Positions 3,887 to 59,927 of a stretch of DNA of 64,000 nt are shown here, piece by piece. How positions within the stretch are numbered: the first letter of the stretch is position 1; every line of letters starts with the position of its first letter. A program made the translations under genes and the position numbers. The notes beneath the pieces were generated by a model. The model searched no databases, was not told the DNA's origin, and saw nothing but the letters and a program-made list of their open reading frames with translations. Source of the stretch: Azonexaceae bacterium (GTDB lineage: Bacteria; Pseudomonadota; Gammaproteobacteria; Burkholderiales; Rhodocyclaceae); the NCBI GenBank assembly GCA_013335535.1, contig JAAXVL010000010.1, positions 78,992 to 142,991 on the forward strand, read 5' to 3'.

Positions 3887-3926
3887 TTCCACGGTCAACC
3901 GGAAAAACTGCCCAAAATTGAAATCC
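3887..3926 (-). repeat. dispersed 40-bp repeat, copy 1 (core CCACGGTCAACCGGAA)
   Basis: ttccacggtcaaccggaaaaactgcccaaaattgaaatcc; abuts the cysW stop codon. Confidence 0.85.
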
Positions 3927-3930
3927 TTCA

Positions 3931-4824
3931 TCAGGCTTCGCTGTCTTCCTTGGCCGCCTGCGCGGCACGCCATTCGATGAAACTCTTGATGACCAGCGTG
4001 AGCAGCGCGAGGATGGCGAGCAGTGAGGCCACGGCGAAAGCCGCGGCGAACTTGTATTCGCTGTAGACGATCTCGACGTGCAGCGGCATGGTGTTGGTCT
4101 CGCCGCGAATGTGGCCGGACACCACCGACACCGCGCCGAACTCGCCCATGGCGCGGGCGTTGCAAAGGATCACGCCGTAGAGCAGACCCCATTTCACATT
4201 GGGAATGGTGACATGCCAGAAGGTCTGCCAGCCGGACGCACCGAGCACCGTCGACGCCTCTTCCTCGTCCCGGCCCTGGGCCTCCATGAGCGGAATGAGT
4301 TCGCGGGCGACGAAGGGAAAGGTCACGAAAATGGTGGCCAGTACGATGCCGGGCACGGCGAAGATGACCTTCATGTCATTGTCGATGAACCACGAGCCGA
4401 GCCAGCCGGTACGCCCGAAGACGAGGACGAAGATGAGGCCGGCGACGACAGGCGAAACCGAGAACGGCAGGTCGATCAGCGTAATCAGGAAGGATTTCCC
4501 CGGAAAGTTGAATTTGGCAATGGCCCAGGCCGCCGCCACGCCGAAGGCCAGATTGAGCGGCACCGCGATGATCGCGGCAGTCAGGGTCAGACGTATGGCG
4601 CTCAGGGCATCCGGCTCGACCAGAGCGACCAGATAGGCATCCCAGCCCTTGCGCAGCGCCTCGTAAAAAACGACGACCAGCGGCAGCAGCAGGAACAGGG
4701 CGAAGAAGCTCAGCGAAATGCCGATGACGGTCCATTTGACCCAGTTGCTCTCCCGGGTGGCCGGATTGCTTTCGTAACGCTCGGCATGTGCCGGCCCAAG
4801 ATGTAATGAGATTGCGGCAGCCAT
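3931..4824 (-). CDS. cysW: sulfate/thiosulfate ABC transporter permease CysW
   Basis: Start set at ATG 4824, overlapping the cysT stop (TAATG). Typical CysW sequence including the EAA-loop region GASGWQTFWHVTIPNVKWGLLYG. Confidence 0.9.
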   Translation of the reverse strand: MAAAISLHLGPAHAERYESNPATRESNWVKWTVIGISLSFFALFLLLPLVVVFYEALRKGWDAYLVALVEPDALSAIRLTLTAAIIAVPLNLAFGVAAAWAIAKFNFPGKSFLITLIDLPFSVSPVVAGLIFVLVFGRTGWLGSWFIDNDMKVIFAVPGIVLATIFVTFPFVARELIPLMEAQGRDEEEASTVLGASGWQTFWHVTIPNVKWGLLYGVILCNARAMGEFGAVSVVSGHIRGETNTMPLHVEIVYSEYKFAAAFAVASLLAILALLTLVIKSFIEWRAAQAAKEDSEA

Positions 4825-5651
4825 TAGGTAGACCTTCCGGTACGTTTCGCCGTCCACGCCTGGAGGCTGTTGATGGTGATAAGCAGGATGAAGGAAACGA
4901 TCAGCATGACGGCCGCGATGGCCGTCGCGCCACGGTAATCGTACTGCTCGAGCTTGGTGATGATCATGAGCGGGGTGATTTCGGAGACCATCGGGATGTT
5001 GCCGGCGATGAAGATCACCGAGCCGTATTCGCCGACCGCGCGGGCGAAAGCGAGCGCGAAGCCGGTCAGCAAAGCCGGAAACAGCGTCGGGAAAATCACC
5101 TTGCTGATCGTCTGCCAGCGGTTCGCACCGAGGCTGGCGGCCGCTTCTTCAATCTCGATCTGCAGATCCTCCAGCACCGGCTGCACGGTCCGCACGACGA
5201 ATGGCAGGCCAATGAACACCAGCGCCAGCAAAACGCCGAGCGGCGTGAAGGCCACCTTGATGCCGAACGATTCGACAATGCTGCCGATCCAGCCATTTCC
5301 GGCCCACAGCGCAGTCAAGGCAATGCCGGCCACCGCCGTGGGCAGTGCAAACGGCAGATCGACCAGCGAATCGACGATTTTCTTGCCCGGAAAGGTGTAG
5401 CGCACGAGGCTCCAGGCCAGCAACAGCCCGAACACCGCATTGATCGCCGCCGCCGCCAGCGAGGCGCCGAAGGTCAGCTTGTACGAAGCCACCACGCGCG
5501 GCGTCGTCACCACGTACCAGAACTGGTCCAACGTCAGTTCGGCCGACTTGATGAACACCGCCGCCAGAGGGATCAGCACGATCAACGACAGCCAGGTCAG
5601 CGTATAACCGAGCGAAAGCTTGAAGCCGGGCAAGGCATTGCGATTGCTCAT
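4824..5651 (-). CDS. cysT: sulfate/thiosulfate ABC transporter permease CysT (CysU)
   Basis: Start set at ATG 5651 (MSNRNALPGFKLSLGYTLTWLSL...). EAAASLGANRWQT loop motif. Confidence 0.9.
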   Translation of the reverse strand: MSNRNALPGFKLSLGYTLTWLSLIVLIPLAAVFIKSAELTLDQFWYVVTTPRVVASYKLTFGASLAAAAINAVFGLLLAWSLVRYTFPGKKIVDSLVDLPFALPTAVAGIALTALWAGNGWIGSIVESFGIKVAFTPLGVLLALVFIGLPFVVRTVQPVLEDLQIEIEEAAASLGANRWQTISKVIFPTLFPALLTGFALAFARAVGEYGSVIFIAGNIPMVSEITPLMIITKLEQYDYRGATAIAAVMLIVSFILLITINSLQAWTAKRTGRST

Positions 5652-5821
5652 CGCGCCACCTCGCCGAGCCGAGTATTTCTGTAAAACACTGAAAACATGA
5701 GAACTCCGAAACGCTTCTGACAAGCCCAAAGCTTAGAGAGTGCCCGGTCAATCCATAACCAATTTATTCCTCTTTGCTTATTCCGATTGCTGCAATACGC
5801 AGAGGAACGACGGGGCCTGGT

Positions 5822-5860
5822 ATTTCAAAATTGGCCGTTTTTTCCGGTTGACCGTGGCAA
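5822..5860 (+). repeat. dispersed 40-bp repeat, copy 2
   Basis: atttcaaaattggccgttttttccggttgaccgtggcaa; lies between sbp and cysT. Confidence 0.85.
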
Positions 5861-5864
5861 GGCA

Positions 5865-5904: not shown

Positions 5905-5947
5905 TTCCGGACAGCGCCCCCAAGCGCCGCCCGTTCCGCAACAAAAC

Positions 5948-6952
5948 TTACTTGATGTAGATCTGGTCGAAAACACCGCCGTCGTCGAAGTGGTCCTTCT
6001 GCACCTTGGTCCAGCCACCGAACTCCTTGTCGATGGTGACCAGCTTGAGCTTGGCGAACTGCTTGGCGTACTTGGCTGCCACCTTCGCATCGGTCGGGCG
6101 ATAGAAGTTCTTGCCCGCGATGTCCTGACCTTCCGGCGTGTAGAGATAGTTCAGGTACTCGGTTGCGACCTTGCGCGTCCCCTTCTTGTCGACCACCTTG
6201 TCGACCACGGCCACCGGCGGCTCAGCCAGGACGGAGATGGACGGCGTGATGATTTCAAACTTGTCCGGCCCCAGTTCCTTGACCGACAGGTAGGCTTCGT
6301 TTTCCCAAGCGATCAGCACGTCACCGATACCGCGCTCGACGAAAGTCGTCGTCGAACCACGAGCGCCGGAATCGAGCACCTTCACATTGCCATAGAGCTT
6401 CTTGACGAATTCCTTGGCCGTTGCATCGCTACCGCCCGGCAATTGCTTGGCGTAAGCCCAGGCCGCCAGGTAGTTCCAGCGGGCGCCGCCGGAGGTCTTC
6501 GGATTCGGGGTCACCACTTCAATACCCGGCTTGACGAGATCACCCCAGTCCTTGATGCCCTTGGGGTTACCCTTGCGGACGAGCAGGACGATGGTCGAGG
6601 TATACGGCGAAGCGTTGAGCGGCAACTTCTTCTGCCAGTCCTTCGCCAGCAGGCCGGCATTGGCCACGGCGTCAATATCACCACCCAGGGCCAGAGTCAC
6701 CACATCGGCATCCAGACCATCGATCACGGCCCGCGCCTGCTTGCCGGAACCGCCGTGGGCAGCCTTGATCGTAACCGTCTCGCCCGTCTTGGCTTTCCAG
6801 TGCTTGGCGAACGCAGCGTTGTACTCCTGATAGAGTTCGCGCGTCGGATCATAGGAGACGTTGAGCAGATTGACGTCAGCGAAAGCGTTGCCGCCGAAGG
6901 CAAGGCCAAGAGCCAGAGCGATCAGGCCGCGGCGGGTGTTGTTGAACTGCAT
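5948..6952 (-). CDS. sbp: periplasmic sulfate-binding protein
   Basis: 334 aa with a signal peptide. Sulfate-binding-protein-like sequence along the whole length ([11 protein letters not shown]..., [11 protein letters not shown]). Confidence 0.9.
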
Positions 6953-7550
6953 TTGCGTAATCCCTGTTTAGTTGTGGAAGCCTTAATTTAAGGAAGCATC
7001 CACACGCCAGGAACGACGATATTTTTATTTAGTTATGCAAAGCTGGCACTCGATTTGTTCAACATTGCTTATATTCAATCGCACCAAGCCGTCTCTTTCG
7101 CAAGATTGCAGGCACAACCAGAGCCTCCGCTAAAAAGGCAACAAAAAACCCGCCGAGCTTTGCGCTGATGTGCCGTTAAGTATTTCCCGGCCCGAAATAA
7201 AGCATTAACTGACCAAGCAGCCCATTAGAGGGGCGAAATTTTAGCCCAGCCCCCCCTCGAAACCCACCCAAAACACGCCTCTCACAACCATTGAAAAGCA
7301 TATCTTGGCCATTCGTGACGAAATAAAGCAATTCTTGTCCAAAAAATATCCCTGAAAATTCAATGATTTTTCGGACATGAAGCACCCTGACCATGCCATT
7401 GACCACCTGACAACCTGACAACCAATAAAACTTCACAAACAGCCATCATCGATTCGATTTTTTCGAACCATCACTCAGAAGTGGATTGATTTCTTAGTAA
7501 CAAGCCCCGACTTACAGTGGCATCACCAACCACTGGAGGAACAATCCACC

Positions 7551-8225
7551 ATGCGCACTGAAGCACGTGTTATCGACCTGAGCAGAACCGAATATGGCAC
7601 GTATGCGGCGCCCGACAGCACCCGTGTCATTCGCAACACTTACCAACTGCTCGCTCTTTCGACTGCGGTAGCCGGCGTAGGGGCTGGTATCACCATGCTG
7701 GCCGGCTTTGGCCCGCTGGCCGGTATTCTATTTACGCTGCTCGGTCTGGTTCCGCTGTTCTATCTGCACAAGAAACGAAATGCCGCAGCAGCCGTGCCGG
7801 CCATGCTGACCTTTACCGCCCTCAGCGGTCTGGGCCTCGGTCCGACGCTAACTCACTACATCAACATGCCGGGTGGAAGCAGTACGGTGCTGACGGCTGC
7901 GGTCATCACGACGGCAGTCACCTTAGCGCTCACGGCTTATGTTCATAAGACCGGCAAGGATTTCTCGCGCATGGGCGGCTTCCTGTTCGCAGGCCTTATT
8001 GTTGTCATCCTGGCCAGCATTGCTGCGATTTTCGTCCCAGCCATGCAGGCTGGTGTATCCGCTGTCGCCGCGCTGCTGTTCTCTGGCTTCATTCTTTACG
8101 ACACCAGCCGTTTGGTGCGTGGTGAAGAAGACAACTACGTGATGGCTGCGGTCAGCATGTACCTGAATGTGCTGAACCTCTTCCTGTCGGTACTGCAACT
8201 GCTCGGCTTCTCCAGCAACGACTAA
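7551..8225 (+). CDS. BAX inhibitor-1 / YccA family membrane protein
   Basis: 224 aa, 7 predicted TM helices. C-terminal LYLNVLNLFLSVLQLLG motif; GGAGGA RBS. Confidence 0.88.
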   Translation: MRTEARVIDLSRTEYGTYAAPDSTRVIRNTYQLLALSTAVAGVGAGITMLAGFGPLAGILFTLLGLVPLFYLHKKRNAAAAVPAMLTFTALSGLGLGPTLTHYINMPGGSSTVLTAAVITTAVTLALTAYVHKTGKDFSRMGGFLFAGLIVVILASIAAIFVPAMQAGVSAVAALLFSGFILYDTSRLVRGEEDNYVMAAVSMYLNVLNLFLSVLQLLGFSSND

Positions 8226-8253
8226 CCCAGTTCGCCACAGACAGGTACCACAA

Positions 8254-8282
8254 CGGCTCGCCAATTGGCGGGCCGTTTTTCC
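8254..8282 (+). terminator. candidate terminator after the YccA-family gene
   Basis: CGGCTCGCC-AATT-GGCGGGCCG stem followed by TTTTT. Overlaps a degenerate copy of the dispersed repeat. Confidence 0.5.
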
Positions 8283-8296
8283 GTTCTACCAGTGGA
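8262..8296 (+). repeat. dispersed repeat, degenerate copy
   Basis: caattggcgggccgtttttccgttctaccagtgga versus consensus CAATTTTGGCCGTTTTTTCCGGTTGACCGTGGA; several indels and mismatches. Confidence 0.4.
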
Positions 8297-8547
8297 CTTT
8301 TTAATCCGGAGGGGTAATCTGGAATCGAAGCCTGACGGGCAGTTGGTCAGGCCCTTCAGGAACAACGCGATTGGAGGCAGCATGACTGAAAATCCGCCGC
8401 AGTTCGACAAGATGAGTGAGTAGCACCCAACGGCAATAAACCGTTCGCCTTGGCCGTGAGCGCTAAGGATCGATATTTACGAAGCCCATGTTTAGCAGAC
8501 ATGGGCTTTATGCATTTATGGATATGTGAATTAGGGTGTGTGGACTA

Positions 8548-8748
8548 TCAGGCGAGCCAAATTAGAGCGGCTACGATTGAAATGAATACTTCAAAGCGGA
8601 CATCGAGTTTGTCATAGCGCGTAGCGATGCGGCGAAACTGCTTCAGGCGGGCAAAGAACCTTTCGATGAGATTTCGACTTTTATAGACATGCTTGTCATA
8701 GCTTCTGAGCACCTTCCGATTGGCTTTTGGCGGAATGACGGCCGCCGT
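8548..8748 (-). pseudogene. IS5-family (DDE) transposase, C-terminal remnant (about 66 codons)
   Basis: Own translation: TAAVIPPKANRKVLRSYDKHVYKSRNLIERFFARLKQFRRIATRYDKLDVRFEVFISIVAALIWLA*. The IERFF..LKxFRRIATRYDK motif is diagnostic. An in-frame stop lies immediately upstream and no N-terminal part is present. Confidence 0.75.
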
Positions 8749-9015
8749 TCAAATTCGCGATATTTCGACAAGCTACGATAAGTAGCACGAATTAAAGGGA
8801 AAAGCAGACAACGAACCGCTAGCCATGAGTGCAGACCTCGAAGGTCTATCGTGGAATCTGATAGTGCAGTGAAGATGCGGGAATCAGATTGCCAATTTTT
8901 GTTCCGCCCCCATCTCTGGACCGCTACTGACACCTTCGCACTCCTCGAAAATTCGGCTCGCCTGCCTTGGTTGTCGTACGACTGCGCAAGGATTGAACAG
9001 TCAGCCACGAAAAAA

Positions 9016-9852
9016 TTAGTCGTCAGTATCGGTTGCAAATGCGCTCTCACGTTGAGATTCGATTGCCGCCAACCGGGCGCACAATATAGCCTGCATGCGA
9101 GTGTAGGCATCACTGCCCAGTACCAGACGTCGGGGCGGATTTTCAGACAGTGCACACTTGATCATCGCGGCAACCATGCGAGCGGGATCTCCGGGGCGCC
9201 TGAAGGAAGGAGATGCAATCTTGCGCCTAAACTCCCCCACCGGTCCCGTTTCGTACTCTTGCATAACATCAGCCTGTACAGCACTTGTACCACTAAAATT
9301 TGTGCGTGCGCTTCCTGGCTCAACTAATGTTACTTGGATATTGAAACCTGTAACCTCCTGAGCCACCGACTCATAAAAACCTTCTACCGCCCATTTGGTC
9401 GCGTGATATAGGCTCAGCGCAGGCAGTGCAATTTGTCCGCCCATGCTCGATAACTGGAGAATGCGACCTGCGCCTTGGCGTCGCAGGTGTGGTATGACCG
9501 CACGTGCAAGCTGAATAGAGCCGATAAGATTTGTATCTATCTGTGCCCGGATTTGCGCGTCAGTTAGCTCTTCCGCTGCCCCGAACAAACCGTAACCTGC
9601 GTTGCTAACGACCACATCTATACGCCCCATCTCAGCAAACGCTTCATTGACAGTTTTACGAAGGTTCTCCGTATCGGTGATATCGAGGATTCCCACCCGT
9701 AGTCGATCGCCATAGCTAGCCTTTAAATCGGCTAGCGCATCAGCCTTGCGAACTGTCGCAGTTACACGGTGCCCGTTTGCCAGTAATTGCTCGACAAACT
9801 GACGACCAAAACCGCTTGATGCGCCTGTAATGAACCATGTCTTAATTGTCAT
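9016..9852 (-). CDS. short-chain dehydrogenase/reductase (classical SDR)
   Basis: TGASSGFG cofactor motif, NAG, and the YHATK catalytic Tyr-x3-Lys. Visibly lower GC than its neighbours. Confidence 0.85.
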   Translation of the reverse strand: MTIKTWFITGASSGFGRQFVEQLLANGHRVTATVRKADALADLKASYGDRLRVGILDITDTENLRKTVNEAFAEMGRIDVVVSNAGYGLFGAAEELTDAQIRAQIDTNLIGSIQLARAVIPHLRRQGAGRILQLSSMGGQIALPALSLYHATKWAVEGFYESVAQEVTGFNIQVTLVEPGSARTNFSGTSAVQADVMQEYETGPVGEFRRKIASPSFRRPGDPARMVAAMIKCALSENPPRRLVLGSDAYTRMQAILCARLAAIESQRESAFATDTDD

Positions 9853-9959
9853 TGCCTTCCTTTCGAGTAAAAGTTAGCCCGCTTGACTCCGAAGCGATCC
9901 TTGAAACACCGGGCAAAAGAGTTCTTGGCGATGAGAGACTCGAAGCCAGCCTCGGTAAA
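9849..9959 (-). pseudogene. AraC-family HTH regulator, C-terminal remnant (36 codons)
   Basis: Own translation: FTEAGFESLIAKNSFARCFKDRFGVKRANFYSKGRQ*, matching the second HTH of AraC/XylS proteins. Its stop overlaps the SDR start (ATGA) and an in-frame stop lies directly upstream. Confidence 0.5.
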
Positions 9960-9994
9960 TTAACGACACTAAAAAATCGAGAAACATCGGTGAC

Positions 9995-12107: not shown

Positions 12108-12148
12108 GATTTCGTTTTTGGCCAAATTTTCCGGTCGACCGTGGAAGG
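12108..12148 (+). repeat. dispersed 40-bp repeat, copy 3
   Basis: gatttcgtttttggccaaattttccggtcgaccgtggaagg. Confidence 0.8.
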
Positions 12149-12212
12149 CGACCTCGATCCGATTATCGGCAAAGCGCGCGCGACCGACGACGAGGCAATC
12201 GCCAAATGAGCC

Positions 12213-12235: not shown

Positions 12236-12276
12236 GATTTCGTTTTTGGCCTTTTTTTTCCGGTTGACCGTGGCAA
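12236..12276 (+). repeat. dispersed 40-bp repeat, copy 4
   Basis: gatttcgtttttggccttttttttccggttgaccgtggcaa; same orientation as copy 3, 128 bp away. Confidence 0.85.
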
Positions 12277-12372
12277 TCGACTGCGCCGACACACCACCGA
12301 TTGCCACGCTCACCACTTCCCGCTAACGTGCGCCCTGAACATTTTTTCAACCTCGCACCAAAGGCTCCCAAT

Positions 12373-17532: not shown

Positions 17533-18179
17533 CAGGCCTCGATCAGTCCGTTGCGGACGGCGACCAGCGTCAGCTCGGCGGCGTTCTGCACGTTGAGCTT
17601 CTGCTTGATGTGATACAGATGGGTGCCGACCGTGCTCGGGCTCAGGCAGAAATCCTCGGCCACGTCATTGACTGAGCGGCCTTCGGCCAGCTTCATGAAG
17701 ACAGCCAGTTCCTTCTCGGTCAGCGTGTCGACCGGGCTGCTCGAGCCGGAAAGCTGGGCCAGCGCGACAGCCTGTGCCAGTTCCGGGTCGAGGTAACGAC
17801 GGTCACTGGCCACCTGGCCGACAGCGCGCAGAAATTCCTCCGGCGATGCCCGCTTGCACAGGTAACCACGGGCACCGAGGCGCAGGGCGCGCACCGGCAC
17901 GACGTCGTCGTTGTGTGCCGAAAGCATGAGCACCTTCGCCTTCGCCTCCCAGGCGATGAGCCGTTCGAGCGCGGCGAGACCGCCAATGCCGGGCATCGAG
18001 ACGTCCATCACGACGACATCCGGGTTGGTTTCGGCGTAGAGGCGGACAGCGCTTTCGCCGTTTTCGGCTTCGCCGACCACCGTCGCGCCAGCTCCTTCGA
18101 GCAGGCAACGGAAGCCAAGGCGAACCATCGCGTGGTCGTCGGCGAGCAGGACGCGCTTGCCGTGCAGTGCGTTGTTCAT
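17532..18179 (-). CDS. NarL/LuxR-family response regulator (REC plus HTH)
   Basis: VLLADDH...DVVVMDVSMPG receiver region and a C-terminal LTEKELAVFMKLAEGRSVNDVAEDFCLSPSTVGTHLYHIKQKL. Resembles ExaE/PedR2-type regulators found next to PQQ-ADH genes. Confidence 0.9.
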   Translation of the reverse strand: MNNALHGKRVLLADDHAMVRLGFRCLLEGAGATVVGEAENGESAVRLYAETNPDVVVMDVSMPGIGGLAALERLIAWEAKAKVLMLSAHNDDVVPVRALRLGARGYLCKRASPEEFLRAVGQVASDRRYLDPELAQAVALAQLSGSSSPVDTLTEKELAVFMKLAEGRSVNDVAEDFCLSPSTVGTHLYHIKQKLNVQNAAELTLVAVRNGLIEA

Positions 18180-19585
18180 GCGAATTCCTCCGGTGAAGGT
18201 TGAAGCGCTGCATCCGGCAGGCGGGCAAAAATGCGGAAGCCGCCGCCGGCCGGTTGTTCGAATTGAAGATCGCCACCCAGCGCGGCAATGCGCTCGGCCA
18301 TGCCCGCCAGGCCAAGGCCGCAGCCGGGTTGCGTCGAAGGCTGGCCGGAACGGCCGCGACCGTTGTCGGACAGCGTCAGCTGCAGGCAGCCAGCCACACG
18401 GCTGATGGCCAGATCGACCTGCGAAGCGTGGGCGTGGCGCACGACATTGGTCAGGCCTTCCTGAACGATACGGACGACGGCCATGGCCAGATCGTCGGCG
18501 ACGGGCTGGGGGCCGATGGCGAGCTGGCTGTTGACGGTGATGTCCGGGTGCTGCACCTGCCAGCCGGCGAGCTGGCGCTCGAGCCTCACGGACAGACTGT
18601 TGCCGGCCACCGGGCGCAGGCGATGCAGTATATTGCGCACGCCGTCCTGCATTTCGCCGGTGACAGCGACGATGCCCTGAGCCGGAATGTGCAGCGATGG
18701 CGCGTCGCCGGTACGCTGGACGATGGCGCCGGCCAGCGCGCGGACAGCGGTGATGCCCTGAGCCAGTTCATCGTGCAGTTCGCGGGCGATGACCCGGCGC
18801 TCCTCTTCGAGGCGATCATGCATCTGGCGGTCGACTTCGCGGGCGCTTTCGAGGCGGACGTTGTCGTCCACCGCCTCGCCCAGCCGGTCGGCCATGCCGT
18901 TGAAGGCGCGCGAAATGCGGCCGAGTTCGGGCGTCGCGAAGACCGGCAGACGGGTGTCGAAACGGCCGCGCGCCGTGCGGTCAAGCGCGCGCATGATCTG
19001 GGCAAGCGGGCGCAGGGCGCGCCCCAGCGCCGTGCGCGTCGCCACGAACAGCAGGCAAAGCAGGGCCAGCGCCCAACCCGCCATGGCCGCCAGATCGTCC
19101 CAGGCGTCGAGAATGGCGCGCGAATCATCAGGATGCAAAGTCAATGTATAGCCCTCGACAGCCAGCGTGCGCGCCGGCAATTCAGTAGCGAGCAGCCCGG
19201 CAAACCAGCCCGGCACGGTGCGCCCGGCCTTGTAGCTCGGACCGGGCGAGCGGTAGATGGATGCACCGGCCGCCGAGCGGATTTCCAGCTCGTTGGCGCG
19301 GACCCGGCCGATGGCGCGCACCACGCCGAGCAGGCGCTCGCCGCGCACAATCGGCGGCACGTCCTGGATCTCACCGATGACGGCCTTGAGCCATTGCTCG
19401 GAGACCCGCGTCGCCGCCTCGACCTCCTCGTGAATGGCATTGCGCGTGGCGTGCAGCCAGAAGCCGGCCATGACGACGAGCAGGCTGGCGGCTAGGGCGG
19501 TGAGGACGAGGCCGACACGGGTGTGGAGGCTCAAGCGCCGGCTTCCACGGTCAACCGGAAAAAATGGCCGAAATTTGAATTTCAT
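18176..19585 (-). CDS. NarX-type sensor histidine kinase (TM, HAMP, HisKA_3, HATPase_c)
   Basis: H-box ARELHDELAQ plus C-terminal ATPase motifs (DNGRG, GCGLGLAGM). ATG 19585 overlaps the receptor stop as ATGA, like every other junction in this operon, and then includes repeat copy 5 in frame. The alternative is TTG 19534. Confidence 0.8.
   Translation of the reverse strand: MKFKFRPFFPVDRGSRRLSLHTRVGLVLTALAASLLVVMAGFWLHATRNAIHEEVEAATRVSEQWLKAVIGEIQDVPPIVRGERLLGVVRAIGRVRANELEIRSAAGASIYRSPGPSYKAGRTVPGWFAGLLATELPARTLAVEGYTLTLHPDDSRAILDAWDDLAAMAGWALALLCLLFVATRTALGRALRPLAQIMRALDRTARGRFDTRLPVFATPELGRISRAFNGMADRLGEAVDDNVRLESAREVDRQMHDRLEEERRVIARELHDELAQGITAVRALAGAIVQRTGDAPSLHIPAQGIVAVTGEMQDGVRNILHRLRPVAGNSLSVRLERQLAGWQVQHPDITVNSQLAIGPQPVADDLAMAVVRIVQEGLTNVVRHAHASQVDLAISRVAGCLQLTLSDNGRGRSGQPSTQPGCGLGLAGMAERIAALGGDLQFEQPAGGGFRIFARLPDAALQPSPEEFA
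19543..19583 (-). repeat. dispersed 40-bp repeat, copy 5
   Basis: ttccacggtcaaccggaaaaaatggccgaaatttgaatttc; lies between the receptor stop and the first TM helix of the kinase. Confidence 0.85.
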
Positions 19586-21909: not shown

Positions 21910-22646
21910 GTTGTTTTTTTAAGTTTGTAATTGATCGGTACGACGACTTGAATTTCGTTGCTGTCGAGCGACTCGGGCAGCGGCGGCAAGCCGGCCAGCG
22001 CTTCGAGCATGGCCAGCGCGTGCTGGTCGAGCACCTCGAAACCGCTCGAACGGTCGAGGGCGATGCCGAGCAGGTTGCCCTTGCGGGCGACTTTCAGGCG
22101 CAGGCGAACCTCGCCTTCCCAGCCGCGCATGGCGGCGATGCGCGGGTATTCCTGATGGCGGGCGAGCAGTTCGCCGAGGCGCTGGCGGTAGCTGTCGAGG
22201 ATTTCGCTTTGCGGGCGCTGCGGGGCGACGGCGGGCGCCGGGCGGGCTGTTTCGGCAACGGGTGCCGCGGGTGCCGCGGGTGCCGATGCTAGCTTGTCGG
22301 AAGACGTTGCGACTGTCGACGACGCCACGGGTGCCGGCACATTGGCCGGCCCGGCAGTCTGCGTCACGCGCGGAGCCGGCCGCTCCGTGCGAATGGCTTC
22401 CTGCCGGGCCTTCTGGGGGACGGTTGCCGGCGCAGGGGCGGCAGCGGCAACGGGTCCGGATTCGGTAACGGCGACCAGGCGGATTGACGCCAGGATGGGC
22501 GGCAGGCTGATCGGGCCGTTCTTGCGTTGCCACGAAGTTACGGCGAACAGCGTGGCGTGGAGCAGGATGGACAAGGCCAGAATTGCCCAGAATTTCCGGT
22601 TGACCGTGGGAACCGCCGGCATATCGATGAGGGCCGCCGCCATCAT
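21906..22646 (-). CDS. tonB: TonB energy-transducer protein
   Basis: N-terminal TM helix with the SxxxH motif (ALSILLHA), a Pro/Ala-rich spacer, and a C-terminal TonB domain (YPRIAAMRGWEGEVRLRLKV...). ATGA overlap with the upstream MBL gene. Confidence 0.8.
   Translation of the reverse strand: MMAAALIDMPAVPTVNRKFWAILALSILLHATLFAVTSWQRKNGPISLPPILASIRLVAVTESGPVAAAAPAPATVPQKARQEAIRTERPAPRVTQTAGPANVPAPVASSTVATSSDKLASAPAAPAAPVAETARPAPAVAPQRPQSEILDSYRQRLGELLARHQEYPRIAAMRGWEGEVRLRLKVARKGNLLGIALDRSSGFEVLDQHALAMLEALAGLPPLPESLDSNEIQVVVPINYKLKKTT
22581..22612 (+). repeat. dispersed repeat, right-half copy inside the tonB coding region
   Basis: aattgcccagaatttccggttgaccgtgggaa; read on the minus strand it encodes TVNRKFWAI of TonB. 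Confidence 0.65.
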
Positions 22647-26592: not shown

Positions 26593-26625
26593 CGGCGCGA
26601 TGACTTCGGTCCTCGCGCCGTTTTT
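26593..26625 (+). terminator. rho-independent terminator after the ADH gene
   Basis: CGGCGCGA-12 nt-TCGCGCCG followed by TTTTT. Preceded by a second small hairpin GGGCGC-TTCG-GCGCCC at 26569-26584. Confidence 0.65.
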
Positions 26626-26660
26626 CATTTTTGGGCGATTTTTCCGGTTGACCGTGGCAA
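26623..26660 (+). repeat. dispersed 40-bp repeat, copy 7
   Basis: tttcatttttgggcgatttttccggttgaccgtggcaa. Confidence 0.85.
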
Positions 26661-26717
26661 ACGCGCTGACTTCAATAAAGGCCAGCAGCGCGAGACTGTT
26701 CGACTTTGCACCACCCT

Positions 26718-29221: not shown

Positions 29222-29260
29222 GATTTGAAATTTGGGCCAAATTTCCGGTTGACCGTGGAA
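29222..29260 (+). repeat. dispersed 40-bp repeat, copy 8
   Basis: gatttgaaatttgggccaaatttccggttgaccgtggaa. Confidence 0.85.
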
Positions 29261-29372
29261 AAGGCATCGCGGTCCCGGAAATGGATTCCGGCGAATTGAC
29301 GAAGAAAATCCCGCGCTGCTTTGCCGGGCGGGATTAACAGCCGATTGGCCTATCCCGGAAGAAAGGCCGGAG

Positions 29373-31907: not shown

Positions 31908-32460
31908 CCATCCACTGCAAAGGCAGGTCGACATAGGCCGCCGCCACTTCGGCAGCACGCGTGAAATCGCCGGAACAGGGCGTGCGGATCGCCGTCATGA
32001 ACTTATGGCTGCTGTGAAAGATTTCCCGGATCACGGCAGGATTGTCGCCAAAGCACTTGCTGATCATCGGTTCCCAGGTCAGCGCCCAGTCCTCGAGCAG
32101 AAAATAGGCACCCTTTTCGAGTTCCTCCATGAATTTCTCGTAGCCGATCAGCATGACGATGCAGTTCTGGCCCTGAGTACGCAGGGTGTGGTGTTTCTCG
32201 AGAATGCTGTCGATCTGCGGATGGCAGCAGCCGTAAAAAACCACCGTATCGCGCCCCTGCAACTCGTCGTTGGCCAGCGTCGCGTTGAGCTGCTCGGACA
32301 GCTTGCCCAGGTAGTTGTGCAGCGCCGAATCGAGAAACTGGGTTTCGACCTGCCAGCCGTTCTTCCTGACCAGCCAATCGACCTCCTTGTGCAGGATGCC
32401 GCAACCGACAATGGTCAACGGCTTGTCAGCGGCAACGACGGGGGGCATGACGGTTTTCAT
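31837..32460 (-). CDS. DUF1638-family protein
   Basis: Start at ATG 32460 overlapping the stop of the upstream gene (ATGA). [13 protein letters not shown] and [11 protein letters not shown] motifs fit DUF1638 as I recall it. The longer ORF-track N-terminus overlaps the upstream gene. Confidence 0.65.
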
Positions 32461-33485: not shown

Positions 33486-34150
33486 GATTTTTTTATTCCC
33501 CGGATCAGGTCGACAATGATCCGCCCGGCGTTGACGCCATCGGCCGCCCAGGCATCGGCGCCCACCGTCTGGTAAAGGCCATCGTCGAAGCGATACGGCG
33601 CGCCGCCGACGACCAGCTTGATGCGGTCTTCGAGCCCCCGCTCGTGCAGGATGCGGCGCACCTTGCTGGCACCGTTCTCGCCGGTGGCGGTATGCACCAT
33701 CATGGCCGAGATGGCAATGACCTGGGCATTTTCGGCCTGCGCCACGTCGACGAATCGCTCGGCCGGCACATTGACGCCAAGGTCGACGACATCGACCATC
33801 AGCGCCTTGAGGCAGCCCATGACGATACGTTTGCCGAGCGAATGCAGGTCGCCGTGCGCGGTGCCCATGACGACCTTGCCAATGATTTCCGGCGGCTGCT
33901 TGAAACTGAGCAGCATCTTCTCGGTGACTTCGGCAGCGATCTGCGCCGTCATGAAGTGCTGGGCGAGGTTGGCGTCCGGGTCCTTGGTAATGTTGGACAT
34001 CATTTCCTCGACGGCCGGAATGACCACCTTGAACACGATGTCCTCGGCCGTCAGCCCCCCGGCCAGCGCGGCCTCGACCACCTCGAAGGCAGCCTCCTTG
34101 TCGGTCTCGAAAACGGCCTCGTTGTACGCTTTGACGATACGTTCAAGCAT
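33482..34150 (-). CDS. cobalamin-binding corrinoid protein (B12-binding_2 cap plus B12-binding Rossmann domain)
   Basis: DxHxxG motif present (GDLHSLGKRIV). 222 aa, the size of MtaC/MtbC/MttC-type corrinoid proteins; AGGAG RBS. Confidence 0.85.
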   Translation of the reverse strand: MLERIVKAYNEAVFETDKEAAFEVVEAALAGGLTAEDIVFKVVIPAVEEMMSNITKDPDANLAQHFMTAQIAAEVTEKMLLSFKQPPEIIGKVVMGTAHGDLHSLGKRIVMGCLKALMVDVVDLGVNVPAERFVDVAQAENAQVIAISAMMVHTATGENGASKVRRILHERGLEDRIKLVVGGAPYRFDDGLYQTVGADAWAADGVNAGRIIVDLIRGIKKS

Positions 34151-34164
34151 GTTGGCTCCTGACG

Positions 34165-35979: not shown

Positions 35980-36060
35980 TTCCTGAACACCTGTTGAGCA
36001 GTTGATCACGCAAAAACCTCCTCCGGGTCATCTCGTGCACCGTCAACAAAATCTCAAGCC

Positions 36061-36097
36061 TTTGAAATTTGGCCATTTTTCCCGGTTGACCGTGGAA
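36061..36097 (+). repeat. dispersed 40-bp repeat, copy 9
   Basis: tttgaaatttggccatttttcccggttgaccgtggaa; ends 10 nt before the sigma-54 promoter. Confidence 0.85.
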
Positions 36098-36107
36098 GTG
36101 GCACGGC

Positions 36108-36123
36108 TGGCACACGGCATGCA
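36108..36123 (+). promoter_or_regulatory. sigma-54 promoter upstream of the aldehyde dehydrogenase gene
   Basis: TGGCACACGGCATGCA (TGGCAC-N5-aTGCA), about 115 nt upstream of ATG 36240. Confidence 0.6.
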
Positions 36124-36239
36124 CATTAGATGGCACGAGCACGGCAGGTCGCATCTTGAAACAACTGAACCGGCCGGCTTCGAGTTAGCCCTTTGAGTTA
36201 CCTGTTTTGCAACTTCATTCAAGAACACTGGAGACAAAC

Positions 36240-41016: not shown

Positions 41017-41043
41017 GCACGGGAATGACCTCGATCAGGCCAA

Positions 41044-41083
41044 TTCCACGGTCAACCGGAAAAAACGGCCAAAATTGAAATCC
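41044..41083 (-). repeat. dispersed 40-bp repeat, copy 10 (closest to consensus)
   Basis: ttccacggtcaaccggaaaaaacggccaaaattgaaatcc. Confidence 0.9.
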
Positions 41084-41154
41084 CGGCTTGCCTCGACAGA
41101 GGCCGGGAGACGCAACAAATTATCGAATCGGGTCTGCATTTCGGAGCCCATGAT

Positions 41155-41176
41155 AAAATTGGCCGCTTTTTCCGGT
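41155..41176 (+). repeat. dispersed repeat, left-half copy
   Basis: aaaattggccgctttttccggt then diverges. Inverted relative to copy 10, 72 bp away; ends 20 nt before ATG 41196. Confidence 0.5.
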
Positions 41177-41195
41177 AAAAGAAGCGGAGAGCAAG

Positions 41196-52807: not shown

Positions 52808-53172
52808 GGCGGCACTAAAGCGTTCAGTCCTGTGGGGATACCTTAGCCCAGCAAACAGTAGCTTTCGCTTGGCGTAGCGTTACCCTGAATGGCCGCTTTT
52901 GAAATCTTCAAGCGGCGGGTAACCGCCCCAATACCGCCGGGCTTTCGGATGATGTCCAGGATCGGCTTTGGCCGATGTCCCGTCGGTCGCCCAAATTTCC
53001 AATCGGACAACGCTTAACCTCAACGCACATTCGGGGATCACAGATTGAGTGCGCAAATGGGCCGTAGATCTCTTTGTCCGATTAGTAGGCTTACTATGCC
53101 GAAATCCTTGCCATGACTCACTCACACAGCAATAGTGGCGTTTTTACACGGCATAGGCTGCGGTGGCGTTTA

Positions 53173-53211
53173 ATTTCAATTTTGGCTGTTTTTCCCGGTT
53201 GACCGTGGCAA
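53173..53211 (+). repeat. dispersed 40-bp repeat, copy 11
   Basis: atttcaattttggctgtttttcccggttgaccgtggcaa. Confidence 0.85.
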
Positions 53212-53259
53212 CGACTATTACTTTGGTCAGAGCACCTTGCTCCGTCGTGGAGCAGTTGT

Positions 53260-56260: not shown

Positions 56261-58246
56261 ATGGGACAGATTCAATTAGTGGCCGAAATTCACGGCCAGC
56301 GCCTGGAACAGGCACGACAGCTGTTTTTTGATCAGGGCAGCCTGCCCGATGGTTTGATCGATCCGGTGATCGTCCGTTCGTGGGAACGTTGCCGGCGCTT
56401 CGGGCTGGGCGAAGCCCACGCCATTCCGGCCGTCGATGCCATGGACCGCGTCGCCCTGAAAACCGAGCAGGACCGCAATCGCCTCCTGCTCGCCCAAGGC
56501 CGGCCGATCATGGAGCATGTTTACGAGCAGATCCGCGAATCCGGCAGCATGGTCATTCTTGCCGACGCCAACGGTCTGCTCCTCGAAACCGTTGGCGATG
56601 CCGACTTCGTCAACCGCGCCGACCGCGTTGCGCTGTCGGCCGGCGCTTCGTGGGACGAGAACCTGCGCGGCACCAATGCCATCGGTACCGCCCTGTCCGA
56701 AGAAAGCCCCGTCTCCATCCTCGGCGGCGAGCACTTCCTCGAACACAACAGTTTCCTGACCTGCTGCGCCAGCCCCATCTTCGGGCCGGACGGCCGGCTG
56801 ATCGGCGTTCTCGACATTTCCGGCGATTACCGCAGCTACCAGCGCCACACGCTGGGCCTGGTCCGCATGTCCTCGGCCATCGTCGAGCGGCGCCTCTTTG
56901 AATCGGTCCACACCCGCGACATCCTCGTCTGCTTCCACCACCGTGCCGACTACCTAGGCAGCCCGAAGGAAGGCATCGCTGCCGTTTCGCCGGACGGCCA
57001 GGTGCTGGCCATGAATCGCAACGGCACCGAACTGCTTGGCATCCGCCAGGTAGACGCCGTGCGCCGCGACTTTTCGATGGTTTTCGAAAGCAACCTGTCG
57101 GCGCTTGTCGACCGTCTGCGCCATACGCCATTCGGCAGCTACGAGATCAACGTCAATGGCAAATCCCTGCACGTCCAACTGCGCGGCCAGTTGCCGCCGC
57201 TCGCCATGGCCGGCCGGGTGTACGACGAACCGGCCGCCATCCGCGCCCCGCGCCGGCCCGAAGCCGCCGCCCCTTCCGGCCCGACGCTCGACACGCTGAA
57301 CACCGGCGATGCCCGCCTGCAGGCCGCCATCGAGCGCGCCCGACGCATCCTCGGCAAGGACATTCCCATCCTCATCCAGGGCGAATCGGGTGCCGGCAAG
57401 GAAATGTTCGCCAAGGGCTTCCACAACAGCGGCCCGCGCAGCACCGGCCCCTTTGTTGCCCTCAACTGCGCGTCGATCCCGGAAACACTCATCGAATCCG
57501 AACTCTTCGGCTACCAGGGCGGCGCCTTCACCGGCGCCCGCAAGGAAGGCGCCCCGGGCAAGATCCAGCAGGCGCACGGGGGTACCCTCTTCCTCGACGA
57601 AATCGGCGACATGCCGCTCAACCTGCAGGCCCGACTGCTGCGCGTGCTGCAGGAACGTTGCGTCACGCCGCTGGGCAGCACACGGGCGATCCAGGTCGAT
57701 ATTTCGCTGGTCTGCGCCACCCACCGAAAATTGCGCGAAGAAGTCGCCCGTGGCGCCTTCCGCGAAGACCTTTATTACCGGCTCAACGGCATGAGCGTCA
57801 CCATGCCAGCCCTGCGCGAGCGCACCGACATTCGCGCCCTGGTCACCAAGATCGCCGCCTCGGAAACGACGAACCGCAGCCTGCAGGTCCGTTTCTCCGA
57901 AAAGGCCCAGCACGCCATTGAGAACTATGCCTGGCCGGGCAACATCCGCCAGCTGTTCAACGTTATCCGCGTCGCCATCGCGCTACTCGACGACGACGAA
58001 GCCGTCATCAACGAAAGCCATCTGCCGGAAGAACTGTTCGAAACCATCATCGCCAGCCCCCCCAACGCGCCGCAAGGCTTCGACCCGTGGGCAGCAGCGC
58101 CGCTCGAAGGTGCCAACAGCATGGATGCGATCAGTCGTCAGGCCGCGATGCGCGCCCTCGACGCCGCTGGCGGCAACATCTCGTCAGCCGCGCGCCAGCT
58201 CGGCATCAGCCGCAACACGCTGTACCGCAAGCTGGGACGGATGTAG
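56261..58246 (+). CDS. sigma-54-dependent transcriptional activator, AcoR type (N-terminal GAF-like sensor, AAA+, Fis-type HTH)
   Basis: Walker A GESGAGKE, the GAFTGA loop (YQGGAFTGA), RVLQE, and C-terminal HTH AARQLGISRNTLYRKL. Confidence 0.9.
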   Translation: MGQIQLVAEIHGQRLEQARQLFFDQGSLPDGLIDPVIVRSWERCRRFGLGEAHAIPAVDAMDRVALKTEQDRNRLLLAQGRPIMEHVYEQIRESGSMVILADANGLLLETVGDADFVNRADRVALSAGASWDENLRGTNAIGTALSEESPVSILGGEHFLEHNSFLTCCASPIFGPDGRLIGVLDISGDYRSYQRHTLGLVRMSSAIVERRLFESVHTRDILVCFHHRADYLGSPKEGIAAVSPDGQVLAMNRNGTELLGIRQVDAVRRDFSMVFESNLSALVDRLRHTPFGSYEINVNGKSLHVQLRGQLPPLAMAGRVYDEPAAIRAPRRPEAAAPSGPTLDTLNTGDARLQAAIERARRILGKDIPILIQGESGAGKEMFAKGFHNSGPRSTGPFVALNCASIPETLIESELFGYQGGAFTGARKEGAPGKIQQAHGGTLFLDEIGDMPLNLQARLLRVLQERCVTPLGSTRAIQVDISLVCATHRKLREEVARGAFREDLYYRLNGMSVTMPALRERTDIRALVTKIAASETTNRSLQVRFSEKAQHAIENYAWPGNIRQLFNVIRVAIALLDDDEAVINESHLPEELFETIIASPPNAPQGFDPWAAAPLEGANSMDAISRQAAMRALDAAGGNISSAARQLGISRNTLYRKLGRM

Positions 58247-58248
58247 GG

Positions 58249-58629
58249 CTAGAGGCCGAGCAGCGGGCTACGCGTCAGTGCCACACTGACGATGTAGCCG
58301 TAGGCCAGCACGGCCAACCCGAGGTAGCGCGTCCGGATTGACTTGGTTCGGCCGCGCTTGAGCGCCATCATGCCGAACAAAATGTAGGCGAGCAGGCCGA
58401 AGAGCTTGGCGGTCAGCCAGCCGTTCACAAACGGGTACTGGCCGCTCAGCCAGGCCATGGTCAGCGCGCTGCCGAGCAGCAGCGTATCGACGATGTGGGG
58501 CAGGATGCGCGTCAGGCGGTGCTGGCGCAGCGGCGATTCGCGCAGCATCCACCAGCCACGCAGGCCAAAACCCAGGCCACTGAGCACGACGCAGGTAACG
58601 TGCAGATGTTTGAGGGCGAGATAGCTCAT
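58249..58629 (-). CDS. SirB2-family small membrane protein
   Basis: Start at ATG 58629 overlapping the upstream stop (ATGA). MSYLALKHLHVTCVVLSGLGFGLRG is typical of SirB2/YchQ-like proteins. Confidence 0.65.
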   Translation of the reverse strand: MSYLALKHLHVTCVVLSGLGFGLRGWWMLRESPLRQHRLTRILPHIVDTLLLGSALTMAWLSGQYPFVNGWLTAKLFGLLAYILFGMMALKRGRTKSIRTRYLGLAVLAYGYIVSVALTRSPLLGL

Positions 58630-59927
58630 GGCGCCGTCAGCTTGGCGGCGAGTTTGGCCTCGATGTCTGCCTGATGGTGACGATAGCGCCCGATGGCACC
58701 GGCCAGATTCCACCACAGCCAGCCATTGGCCACGGCAAAAGCCAGCCCGGCTGGTCGGGCCAGCCAGGCCGGGATGACGATGGCGGCGAGAAGCAGAGCC
58801 AGGGCGGCGGCGTAAGCCAGCAACTGCCGGTGCATGGCGGGTTCGGCGAGAATCTTGTTCATGGCCGGGGCCGGCACCTTGGCCTGGCCGCAAGTCTGCA
58901 GGTGCGTCCAGGATAAAAAGGGAACGATCTTGTAGAGCATGCCGGTGATGAAGGGGATGAATCCGCCGGCAATGAGCAAAACACCGAACATGAGGGTCCA
59001 GCCATCGATGTCAGCCAGCGCCGGCCGGATTGCCACGGTCAACAGGAAAAACAGCCCAAAAATGGAAAGTATCAAACCGAGCTGCCAGTAGCGGTAGGTG
59101 GCATCCGGCCGCGCCCGCCGCCGCTGCCCCTGCAGGCGCAGGGTCAGCCCGGCGAAGGCCATGCCGGCCAATGCCGCGCCAAGCTGGCCGAGGCGGACGA
59201 GCAGTGACCAGTCGCCGAGCACGCCGATGCTCCACAGCAGCAGCATGAGCAGCATGAAGAGCGGGAACCACCAGCTGGCGCGCGCCGGGTAGCCGGGCGT
59301 CAACTGGAACATCGGCACCACGACGTAGGCCATGGCCGCCAGCAGGACACCGGCCCAGCCGCCCAGCCCCCAACCGGCGTGCAGGTCAGCCAGCGCCATG
59401 AGGGGCAATGGCCAGCCATAGGCCAGCGCCAGTGCCAGAACGACGCCGAGCCCGACGACACCGGACAAGCCGAACAGCGCGACCTTGATGCCGCGGATGG
59501 TCGGGCTGGTTGTCGGGACGGCGATCAGGGCGCTGACGGTTACCGCCAGGAAGAACAGCATGCTCAGACCGAGCGTCAGGGCCGCGATGCCGAGCAGCGC
59601 AGGTGCCCCGAAAAAGAACCCGGCAGCCAGCAGGAGCGCCCCGACCGTGAGGCCGACATGGACGACGCGGGCTACGGCCACCGGCCGTTTCAGGCTAGCA
59701 CCGGCGACCACTGGCAGAATCTGGATGAGCGCGCCGAGCATGACCTGCAGCATGAAGCCGATGGTGATCAGATGCGTCGCCGCCAGGGCGCCGGGCGTCC
59801 ACCGCGAGGCGAAGATATCCGGCCCTTCGAAGGCGACGAGCAGGCCGGCCAGTGCTGCAAAGAGCGGCGCGGTCAGAAAGAAGCGCAGCGGCGCGGCGAA
59901 GGGCGGTGCGTTTTCGAAGGCCAGCAT
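58626..59927 (-). CDS. polytopic inner-membrane protein of unknown function (about 12 TM)
   Basis: 433 aa, almost entirely hydrophobic helices. No motif I can assign. Confidence 0.7.
   Translation of the reverse strand: MLAFENAPPFAAPLRFFLTAPLFAALAGLLVAFEGPDIFASRWTPGALAATHLITIGFMLQVMLGALIQILPVVAGASLKRPVAVARVVHVGLTVGALLLAAGFFFGAPALLGIAALTLGLSMLFFLAVTVSALIAVPTTSPTIRGIKVALFGLSGVVGLGVVLALALAYGWPLPLMALADLHAGWGLGGWAGVLLAAMAYVVVPMFQLTPGYPARASWWFPLFMLLMLLLWSIGVLGDWSLLVRLGQLGAALAGMAFAGLTLRLQGQRRRARPDATYRYWQLGLILSIFGLFFLLTVAIRPALADIDGWTLMFGVLLIAGGFIPFITGMLYKIVPFLSWTHLQTCGQAKVPAPAMNKILAEPAMHRQLLAYAAALALLLAAIVIPAWLARPAGLAFAVANGWLWWNLAGAIGRYRHHQADIEAKLAAKLTAP
59030..59073 (-). repeat. dispersed repeat, degenerate copy inside the membrane-protein coding region
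   Basis: ttgccacggtcaacaggaaaaacagcccaaaaatggaaagtatc; encodes LSIFGLFFLLTVAI within a predicted TM helix. Confidence 0.6.

Follow-up and report, generated by a model that had tools for sequence, protein, structure and literature searches.

A 64,000-nucleotide stretch of contig JAAXVL010000010.1 from an Azonexaceae bacterium, referred to as a whole (64 kb) as the window, carries a dispersed, asymmetric DNA motif of 41 bp built around a 16-nt core. Judging from alignments of orthologous sites, this motif was shown to be generated and maintained in place by base substitution, including substitutions that change amino acids within genes. A DNA-uptake or self-recognition signal upheld by molecular drive, as in the DNA uptake sequences (DUS) of Neisseriaceae and the uptake signal sequences (USS) of Pasteurellaceae, is the explanation that we tentatively place first.

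The window was scanned with the core TTCCGGTTGACCGTGG, allowing up to 2 mismatches, and 12 matches were observed against 0.06 expected from dinucleotide-preserving shuffles of the same 64 kb, so that the over-representation of the core anticipated in the initial annotation holds for the window. A position weight matrix (PWM) of 42 columns, trained solely on copies from other genomes, recovered the identical 12 sites with scores of 37-70 bits, leaving the interval between 5 and 37 bits empty, and its maximum in each of 10 Markov-randomised windows always stayed below 0 bits. The motif alone made up the over-represented 12-mers of the window. Altogether, the window contains 12 solid copies, one truncated copy and one doubtful copy. 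The 11 near-full-length copies that had been located by eye were all correct in coordinates and strand to within 1-5 bases by core scan and PWM, and the by-eye consensus agrees with that of 177 copies. The three copies initially described as partial came out differently: the one at 22581-22612 is intragenic and combines a weak left arm with a perfect core, the one at 41155-41176 is a real-looking truncated copy and the one at 8262-8296 is doubtful.

The anatomy of the motif was derived from 177 copies aligned on the core. The 41-bp unit consists of ATTTCAATTTTGGCCGTTTT, the core TTCCGGTTGACCGTGG and cAatC, in this order, and its boundaries are sharp: precisely at position -20 the information content climbs from near 0 to above 1 bit, and it drops again after +20. 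The most constant part of the core, GGTTGACCG, is essentially invariant, and to its left lie CCGG, an AT tract (-4 to +1), GGCC and two further AT tracts (-15 to -10 and -20 to -17), which gives a one-sided layout of two GC clamps (CCGG and GGCC) and three AT tracts. From the centre of GGTTGACCG to those of the first two AT tracts, the distances are about 9.5 and 20.5 bp, roughly one and two helical turns. Within the tracts, T and A replace each other freely and G or C almost never occur (T121/A55/C0/G1 at position -13 and T143/A34/C0/G0 at position -2), to the point that an entire tract may read AAAA for TTTT. Since neutral decay favours transitions, this exchange of T and A with transitions excluded indicates that the AT character of the double-stranded DNA (groove shape, bendability) is what selection acts on. 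Each strand was folded both as RNA and as DNA; the folds reached only -1.9 to -7.6 kcal/mol, with z values of -0.28 to +0.93 relative to shuffles, and revealed no structure beyond that of the controls. The initial opinion that the element is neither a hairpin of the repetitive extragenic palindrome (REP) type nor a terminator was therefore right, and a structured RNA is ruled out on the same grounds. The element was shown to be a motif at the level of double-stranded DNA.

To describe its distribution, one genome per species was scanned for exact occurrences of TTTTCCGGTTGACCGTGG, which returned at least 99 tiles, those listed being almost all from Azonexus, Ferribacterium, Dechloromonas or unnamed Rhodocyclaceae metagenome-assembled genomes. 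Among the matches listed, the same 41-bp consensus was present in at least about 17 Azonexus/Ferribacterium/Dechloromonas genomes, and 4 singleton matches in unrelated phyla had their flanks missing. Of the DNA fetched, the closest shares 87-91% identity with the window, and homologues of a window protein were found in Ferribacterium limneticum and Dechloromonas spp. Density was calculated on loci picked by protein homology and not by the motif (the window, L101, L104, L107, L154 and L155; L numbers denote fetched loci and contigs). Across 163 kb, the motif-bearing lineages contain 32 copies (about 1 per 5 kb), whereas about 175 kb of syntenic DNA from the other relatives has essentially none; this DNA includes ~21-kb loci of both D. 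aromatica RCB and D. denitrificans as well as several metagenomic relatives. In the loci sampled, these two closely related lineages are thus devoid of the motif and retain nothing but decayed relics. The 3' edge varies by lineage (GTGG, GTAG, GTCA, GCAG or GCAA), and more distant relatives retain just a T-rich...GGTTGACCGCAAC sequence. A diverged version, T-rich...GG(A/C)CGGTTGACCG(C/T)AACAAT(C/T), occurs at 12211 in L110 and at 21357 and 12333 in L112 (receptor protein about 72% identity), which suggests an older family with a different dialect. Only 17 exact cores, mostly devoid of the left arm, were detected in 2.9 million viral contigs, an estimated chance level; the motif is not a phage element, and the viral scan says nothing further. 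The IMG/VR contigs L137, L139, L149, L146 and L148 (59-63% G+C) each contain one perfect core, whose left arm matches in part; they are probably (pro)phages of the same host clade.

The evidence that copies are made by substitution comes from orthologous sites. Seven coding and two intergenic sites have the same length across the genomes compared, apart from one 4-residue loop indel, which points to substitution and not to insertion, and a clean presence or absence of 41 bp was found at none of the orthologous sites compared. A transaldolase containing the core (...GIEAFFRLTVEGISVN...) aligns without gaps to the best-matching solved transaldolase (PDB 7bbw, ...GIDALETLVSDGISVN...), AFFRLTVEG standing opposite ALETLVSDG. 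The copy within a MurU-type nucleotidyltransferase matches 19 of 20 left-arm bases, and this protein differs from its solved Pseudomonas homologues only by the 4-residue loop indel; the ancestral D-Y/F-D-F-A/G-R was already similar to the left arm. An orthologous series of 35 metagenomic loci was fetched via the receptor gene of the window. At the N-terminus of the histidine kinase, relatives have either peptides of similar length and graded resemblance (L112 MKKFRHFFAVDRNRR, L116 MRFWPIFPVDRAAQ, MRFWPSARRDR) or unrelated short tails, and a 41-bp gap is present in none of their loci. The TonB site reads PAVDRRFW (GCGGTCGACCGNCG) in its widespread form and PTVNRKFW (CCACGGTCAACCGGAA) in the lineage of the window, where a conserved Asp has been changed. 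The copy in a membrane protein is gap-free against 12 orthologues (SIFGLFFLLTVAI vs SIFALFLLSTVAV vs SIVALLMLASAAL, the latter in D. aromatica). Likewise, a beta-CASP hydrolase reads YGESLQPAES in D. aromatica and YGEILQPAAT in D. denitrificans versus YGQPEKTAEN in two motif-bearing relatives, again gap-free, and this change creates about 30 nt of motif. Of the two intergenic sites, 12129 has a counterpart of the same length in the motif-free locus L102, with 26/41 positions identical and 0 gaps (flanks 96/121, 79%), and 53193 has a same-length relic, TTTTCATTTTTGACGATTTATTTCTATTGGCCGTAGCAAC, in D. aromatica.

Identity over the motif was then compared to that of its flanks at four alignable orthologous sites, in 37 locus comparisons whose lineages are not independent: motif-bearing relatives gave 0.81 for the motif vs 0.76 for the flanks, and motif-free relatives 0.51 vs 0.68 (p = 8e-6). 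By this measure, the motif was shown to decay in sister lineages, which would have lost whatever maintains it.

As for genomic context, about 2/3 of the copies sit in non-coding DNA, which makes up roughly 12% of the sequence, and about 1/3 lie within confidently predicted genes. The intergenic copies of the fetched loci are divided into 28 sense and 33 antisense copies between tandem genes, 29 between convergent and 14 between divergent genes, and overall there are 88 plus and 90 minus copies. The motif is therefore without polarity relative to transcription and prefers the 3' sides of genes. The mixed orientation reported initially is confirmed by these counts, and so is the nearness to gene ends, with the correction that 3 of the 12 window copies (19545, 22594 and 59033) are inside coding sequence, the first of which had been taken as intergenic. 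Four of the six reading frames through the motif are open; concerning the TGA-containing frame, one copy provides the stop codon of its gene (L002) and the sole other one (L074) has 2 core mismatches. Terminator hairpins are touched by the copies at 5842 and 26642 and by one in L012. Inverted pairs spaced by 20-59 bp, which would make long palindromes, were seen at L024 ~4928-5002, L054 ~5969-6039, L068 ~673-717, L082 ~5165-5227 and L088 ~1725-1760.

With transposition, a structured RNA, a promoter or operator and a terminator ruled out or very much disfavoured, we are left with a motif at the DNA level. In one clade, an active process keeps writing it into the genomes wherever it is tolerated, and the motif decays once this process stops. 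By analogy with the known systems, biased DNA uptake followed by recombination appears to be the only well-understood process with exactly these signatures, and in moving from drive to uptake we infer. Uptake was ranked first because of the signatures in common with USS and DUS, namely enrichment on both strands, genic copies that arise by substitution and are constrained in frame, preferred location at permissive sites and at the 3' ends of genes, dialects and lineage restriction. Among the options offered in the initial annotation, an uptake-signal-like sequence is accordingly the one that evolutionary behaviour would seem to support best, and a signal of this kind, for DNA uptake or self-recognition, is our preferred but still tentative explanation. 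That it represents a third, independently evolved DNA uptake signal system, in a subclade of Azonexaceae (Ferribacterium / Azonexus / part of 'Dechloromonas'), we regard as possible, with slightly more reserve. The maintaining force would then be the same as for Pasteurellaceae USS and Neisseriaceae DUS: a surface component of the competence or type IV pilus machinery would preferentially bind and import fragments carrying the motif, and homologous recombination of the imported fragments would spread mutations that improve the match (molecular drive). Matches would build up where tolerated, that is, downstream of genes and, within proteins, in loops, linkers, transmembrane helices and tails at the N-terminus. 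Made of T or A and not of G/C, the AT tracts might help the DNA to bend or kink while it is being bound or passes through, as has been suggested for USS. Drift in receptor specificity would lead to the lineage dialects at the 3' edge, and loss of the receptor or of competence would lead to the decay in D. aromatica and D. denitrificans.

Several observations weigh against an uptake signal. The literature searched contains no publication on natural competence or selective uptake in this clade, and no competence or pilin gene is found among the proteins of the 64-kb window; a crude regular expression for the type IV pilin N-terminal motif gave no match in the fetched loci either, a result that is uninformative. 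The near-invariant core of 16 nt and the total of 41 bp exceed the 9-12 nt cores of known uptake sequences, the density is about five times below that typical of DUS/USS, and the motif is more strongly intergenic than the USS of H. influenzae. Close inverted pairs, which DUS/USS often form in terminators, are infrequent in this motif (5 pairs among about 280 copies). Moreover, all that substitution in place demonstrates is a drive or selection of some kind on the DNA sequence, and it does not single out uptake as the force. Given that the short core and the abundance of about 1 copy per kb that describe DUS and USS are not features of this motif, its membership in these families is unproven.

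The strongest competitor is a site for an abundant intracellular DNA-binding protein (candidates being a lineage-specific nucleoid-associated or DNA-bending protein, gyrase/topoisomerase at a strong site, or a chromosome-organisation factor), kept by selection for regular spacing of the sites or by a bias in repair or gene conversion that is linked to the protein. We consider it unlikely, and the high-copy protein-binding site proposed in the initial annotation stays as a generic rival of this kind. An asymmetric 41-bp footprint with phased A/T-only tracts is typical of shape readout and bending, one copy per about 5 kb resembles REP/BIME spacing, and E. coli REP/BIME elements bind gyrase and IHF. 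The motif is also independent of orientation, its length and information content are above those of known uptake sequences, and its loss and decay fit lineages that could have lost the protein. Nevertheless, the selective value of each site would be tiny and yet genic copies cost several amino-acid changes, which drive explains more easily than selection site by site. On inspection against consensus sequences, the motif did not match that of IHF (WATCAANNNNTTR) and resembled that of Fis only in part. To our knowledge there is no precedent for a nucleoid-associated-protein site with a 16-nt core spread through coding regions, and Chi and KOPS, the functional motifs known to be spread genome-wide and also through genes, are strand-polar and have a length of 5-8 nt, unlike this one. 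By the same kind of inspection, readings of the core as an IHF, Fis, FNR/CRP-like palindromic or sigma-54 site gave no convincing match. A promoter, with TTGACC as -35 and the T-rich arm as UP element, was rejected too, as -10 conservation is lacking (less than 0.1 bit at +29 to +34) and many copies are convergent or intragenic.

A tiny non-autonomous mobile element, of REP/REPIN type or similar to a MITE (miniature inverted-repeat transposable element), would be moved by a trans-acting transposase and would have reached genes by short-patch gene conversion. This option, also raised initially, is largely refuted and in our judgement very improbable. It would account for the sharp boundaries, the high similarity of the copies and the intergenic position, near gene ends, of the majority of them; in addition, several intergenic sites cannot be aligned with motif-free relatives (26642 is one such site), and at the intergenic site 12258 a relative differs by indels of about 38 nt. 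However, neither target-site duplications of 3-8 bp nor flanking or terminal inverted repeats were found above chance in the aligned flanks of 138 copies, the motif forms no hairpin, and there is no transposase or RAYT gene among the window proteins. Presence or absence of a clean 41-bp unit was not seen at the orthologous sites compared, and motif-free relatives carry ordinary sequence of the same length at the seven coding and two intergenic sites described above, the loop indel apart. Besides, 41 bp is not a multiple of 3 and yet coding copies hold their frame without indels, and the exchange of T and A with transitions excluded denotes purifying selection and not the neutral decay of an insertion. 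Finally, a polar signal for recombination (Chi-like, for RecBCD/AddAB) or for segregation (similar to the FtsK-orienting polar sequences, KOPS) can practically be discarded: although the motif is lineage-specific, enters genes via substitution and, at about 1 per 5 kb, is near the density of Chi in E. coli, known signals of this type are 5-8 nt and not 16-41 nt long, no strand bias was detected in the sampled loci relative to local GC skew (69 vs 54, p = 0.21) or to the majority gene strand, both of them noisy proxies, and the concentration of 2/3 of the copies in the roughly 12% of non-coding DNA is unexpected for a signal that is needed evenly.

The copies of the window illustrate these contexts. 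The best of them, 41041..41082 (-), matches the consensus perfectly (PWM 70 bits) and is intergenic, 24 bp past the stop of a DUF6691 gene on the plus strand. It is followed by the truncated copy 41153..41178 (+), which was read directly as it falls below the PWM threshold; it retains the left arm and the first 7 core bases, TTCCGGT (in all AAAATTGGCCGCTTTTTCCGGT), after which the sequence is unrelated, and lies ~20 bp before the start of gene 41196. Another full copy with a perfect core (0 mismatches, 66 bits) occupies 3884..3925 (-), in intergenic DNA 6 bp past the stop of the ABC-permease gene 3931-4857(-) and in the same orientation as the flanking genes. The full copy 5821..5862 (+; perfect core, 63 bits) is located between two minus-strand genes, antisense to both, and adjoins the terminator hairpin of the solute-binding-protein gene 5948-6952(-). 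Two full copies in direct orientation are 129 bp apart: 12108..12149 (+), with 1 core mismatch (TTCCGGTCGACCGTGG, 57 bits), is placed 29 bp upstream of the start of a TonB-dependent receptor (about 12079, minus strand), and 12237..12278 (+), with a perfect core and one additional T in the left arm (47.7 bits), is upstream of an FKBP isomerase gene. The full copy 53172..53213 (+; 1 mismatch, 60 bits) is found between convergent genes, 46 bp past the stop of cytochrome b561.

Three more intergenic copies have noteworthy surroundings. The full copy 26621..26662 (+; perfect core, 61 bits) lies 70 bp past the stop of a pyrroloquinoline quinone (PQQ)-alcohol-dehydrogenase gene, its T-rich left arm touching the second of two terminator hairpins, and is kept at the same site in L118, L116, L133 and L104. 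Downstream of the PQQ alcohol dehydrogenase, L104 has an insertion of ~1 kb (4283-5264, orthologous to window ~26600) with a 247-aa lipoprotein-like gene; the insertion is bordered by a duplicated terminator hairpin, and the motif is retained at the distal duplicate only. The full copy 29222..29263 (+; 56 bits) combines a perfect core with the AAA variant of the AT tract (GGGCCAAATTTCC) and is intergenic, 109 bp beyond the stop of a hybrid histidine kinase (minus strand) and antisense to both neighbours. Beside a hybrid histidine kinase, a corrinoid methyltransferase-type cluster spans 31837-35769(-) and encodes a RACo-like reductive activase, a B12-binding protein, a URO-D/MtaA-like methyltransferase and a DUF1638 protein, a metabolic module unusual for this clade. 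The full copy 36059..36100 (+; 1 mismatch, TCCCGG..., 57 bits) is situated in a divergent intergenic region, 139 bp upstream of an aldehyde dehydrogenase gene. Directly 3' of it, at 36100-36135(+), there is a sigma-54-type promoter-like element (TGGCACGGCTGGCACACGGCATGCA; TGGCAC-N5-(A)TGCA) upstream of the aldehyde dehydrogenase, DUF779 and cytochrome c genes, and a gene for a sigma-54 activator with a GAF domain is present at 56261-58246.

The three intragenic copies contribute codons to their hosts. The full copy 19540..19581 (-; perfect core, 59 bits) codes for residues 2-15 of the histidine kinase (MKFKFRPFFPVDRGSRR...). The kinase gene (18176-19585(-)) begins with an ATG that overlaps the TGA ending the TonB-dependent receptor gene upstream (ATGA, window 19582-19585). 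Its start is miscalled, since in mechanical open reading frame (ORF) lists the gene reaches to a GTG at 19627 and the gene caller cut it back to 19534; both calls are misleading as a result of the motif copy at the kinase start. More generally, ORF calling is distorted because the motif creates shared peptides and false N-terminal extensions. The copy 22573..22614 (+), with a perfect core and a weak left arm (37 bits), lies in the TonB gene 21906-22646 (minus strand) and codes for PTVNRKFWAIL, the TonB N-terminus. The copy 59028..59069 (-), with 1 core mismatch (TTCCTG..., 53 bits), lies in the gene of a 433-aa membrane protein (58626-59927, minus strand) and codes for LSIFGLFFLLTVAI within a transmembrane segment.

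The doubtful degenerate copy 8262..8296 (+; GGCCGTTTTTCCGTTCTACCAGTGGA) was not detected by the PWM, has an indel in the core and overlaps a terminator-like hairpin; it may be a chance resemblance or a decayed relic. It is contained in a stretch (window ~7000-9990) with lower GC (58%) and few confident genes. Synteny with L012, the closest genome fragment, ends exactly at the stop of the receptor gene (9989), where L012 has a motif copy plus a terminator and the window has unrelated sequence, and the stretch may be an island or a rearrangement. Otherwise, the window has 62% G+C and ordinary Gram-negative chromosomal genes (TonB-dependent receptors, PQQ alcohol dehydrogenase, RND efflux pump, two-component systems, PhaC), and a tRNA/tmRNA scan of it found none.

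With regard to novelty, the whole window gave no Rfam match at gathering thresholds, and the sole weak match of a permissive scan around one copy was potC (E = 0.47, 18 bits vs a gathering score of 44). The literature searched included no paper with the core sequence and none on uptake sequences, competence or such a repeat in Dechloromonas, Azonexus or Rhodocyclales. The initial statement that the element belongs to no named family is in line with both searches, and no earlier description appears to exist of an asymmetric 41-bp motif that substitution creates within genes. Sequence-specific DNA uptake is textbook biology, and its two families are host-associated. These two have been stated to be 'the only families known' (PMC12616744). 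If our interpretation as an uptake signal were true, the motif would be the first such signal outside Neisseriaceae/Pasteurellaceae, the first in free-living environmental/wastewater bacteria and the longest known, with a 16-nt core within a 41-bp bent-DNA motif, and its loss in D. aromatica and D. denitrificans would be recent. Lineage dialects together with recent losses would then provide a natural gain/loss series in which the receptor can be sought and molecular drive tested. A third case would be valuable because its hosts are abundant environmental/wastewater denitrifiers and its architecture is different and much longer, and it would make the origin, receptor and maintenance of uptake signals testable via comparative genomics and simple uptake assays. 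It would also imply species-biased gene exchange in communities dominated by these bacteria. If the motif is not for uptake, it is unusual all the same, since an asymmetric 41-bp sequence that substitution writes into genes would indicate a hitherto unknown drive or abundant DNA-binding protein. In either case, the motif can be used as a clade marker.

Among known systems, HIP1 of cyanobacteria (GCGATCGC), whose function is still debated, is similarly abundant in genes and spacers, evolves in place and is restricted to certain lineages. However, HIP1 is an 8-bp palindrome and far denser, whereas the motif described here is asymmetric, 41 bp long and at least 5 times rarer. REP/BIME/REPIN elements of Enterobacteria and Pseudomonas resemble it in their hundreds of short copies (about 35-40 bp), mostly intergenic and downstream of genes, in their species-specific consensus and as possible protein-binding sites (gyrase, IHF). 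They differ in being hairpin-forming imperfect palindromes that are strictly extragenic and mobilised by RAYT, whereas this motif is non-palindromic, enters coding sequence and arises by in-place substitution.

The likeness to DUS is closer. Here too the host is a betaproteobacterium, related lineages show dialects around a constant core, copies are often near gene 3' ends, and the motif is absent or decayed in neighbouring lineages. About 1/3 of DUS copies are in genes, as for the motif described here. The behaviour of DUS/USS copies in coding sequence with respect to frame is also qualitatively like that of our motif, but roughly half of the DUS copies are within terminators, many of them as inverted repeats (bioRxiv 10.1101/2025.10.24.684340). 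Furthermore, DUS are continuous 10-13-mers with no AT tracts, occur about once per kb, share no sequence similarity with this motif (DUS core CTG) and are recognised by the minor pilin ComP, whereas our motif has no known receptor. For the USS of Pasteurellaceae, ComN/PpdA is the predicted receptor.

The closest parallel in architecture is that with USS, to which the motif is unrelated in sequence. The core is 16 nt (9 of them invariant) instead of 9 nt within a total of 41 bp, the density is about 1 per 5 kb instead of about 1 per 1.2 kb, the motif is more strongly intergenic, inverted terminator pairs are rare, and the host belongs to a betaproteobacterial environmental clade in which competence is undocumented. 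The USS comprises a 9-nt core and two helically phased AT regions and reaches 32 nt (PMC12616744), and both signals are thus tens of base pairs long. In both, AT tracts of lower conservation accompany a conserved GC-rich core on one of its sides, at distances of about one and two helical turns, copies occur on both strands and in genic as well as intergenic DNA, those within genes are made by substitution in permissive protein segments, and the signal is lineage-specific, with dialects.

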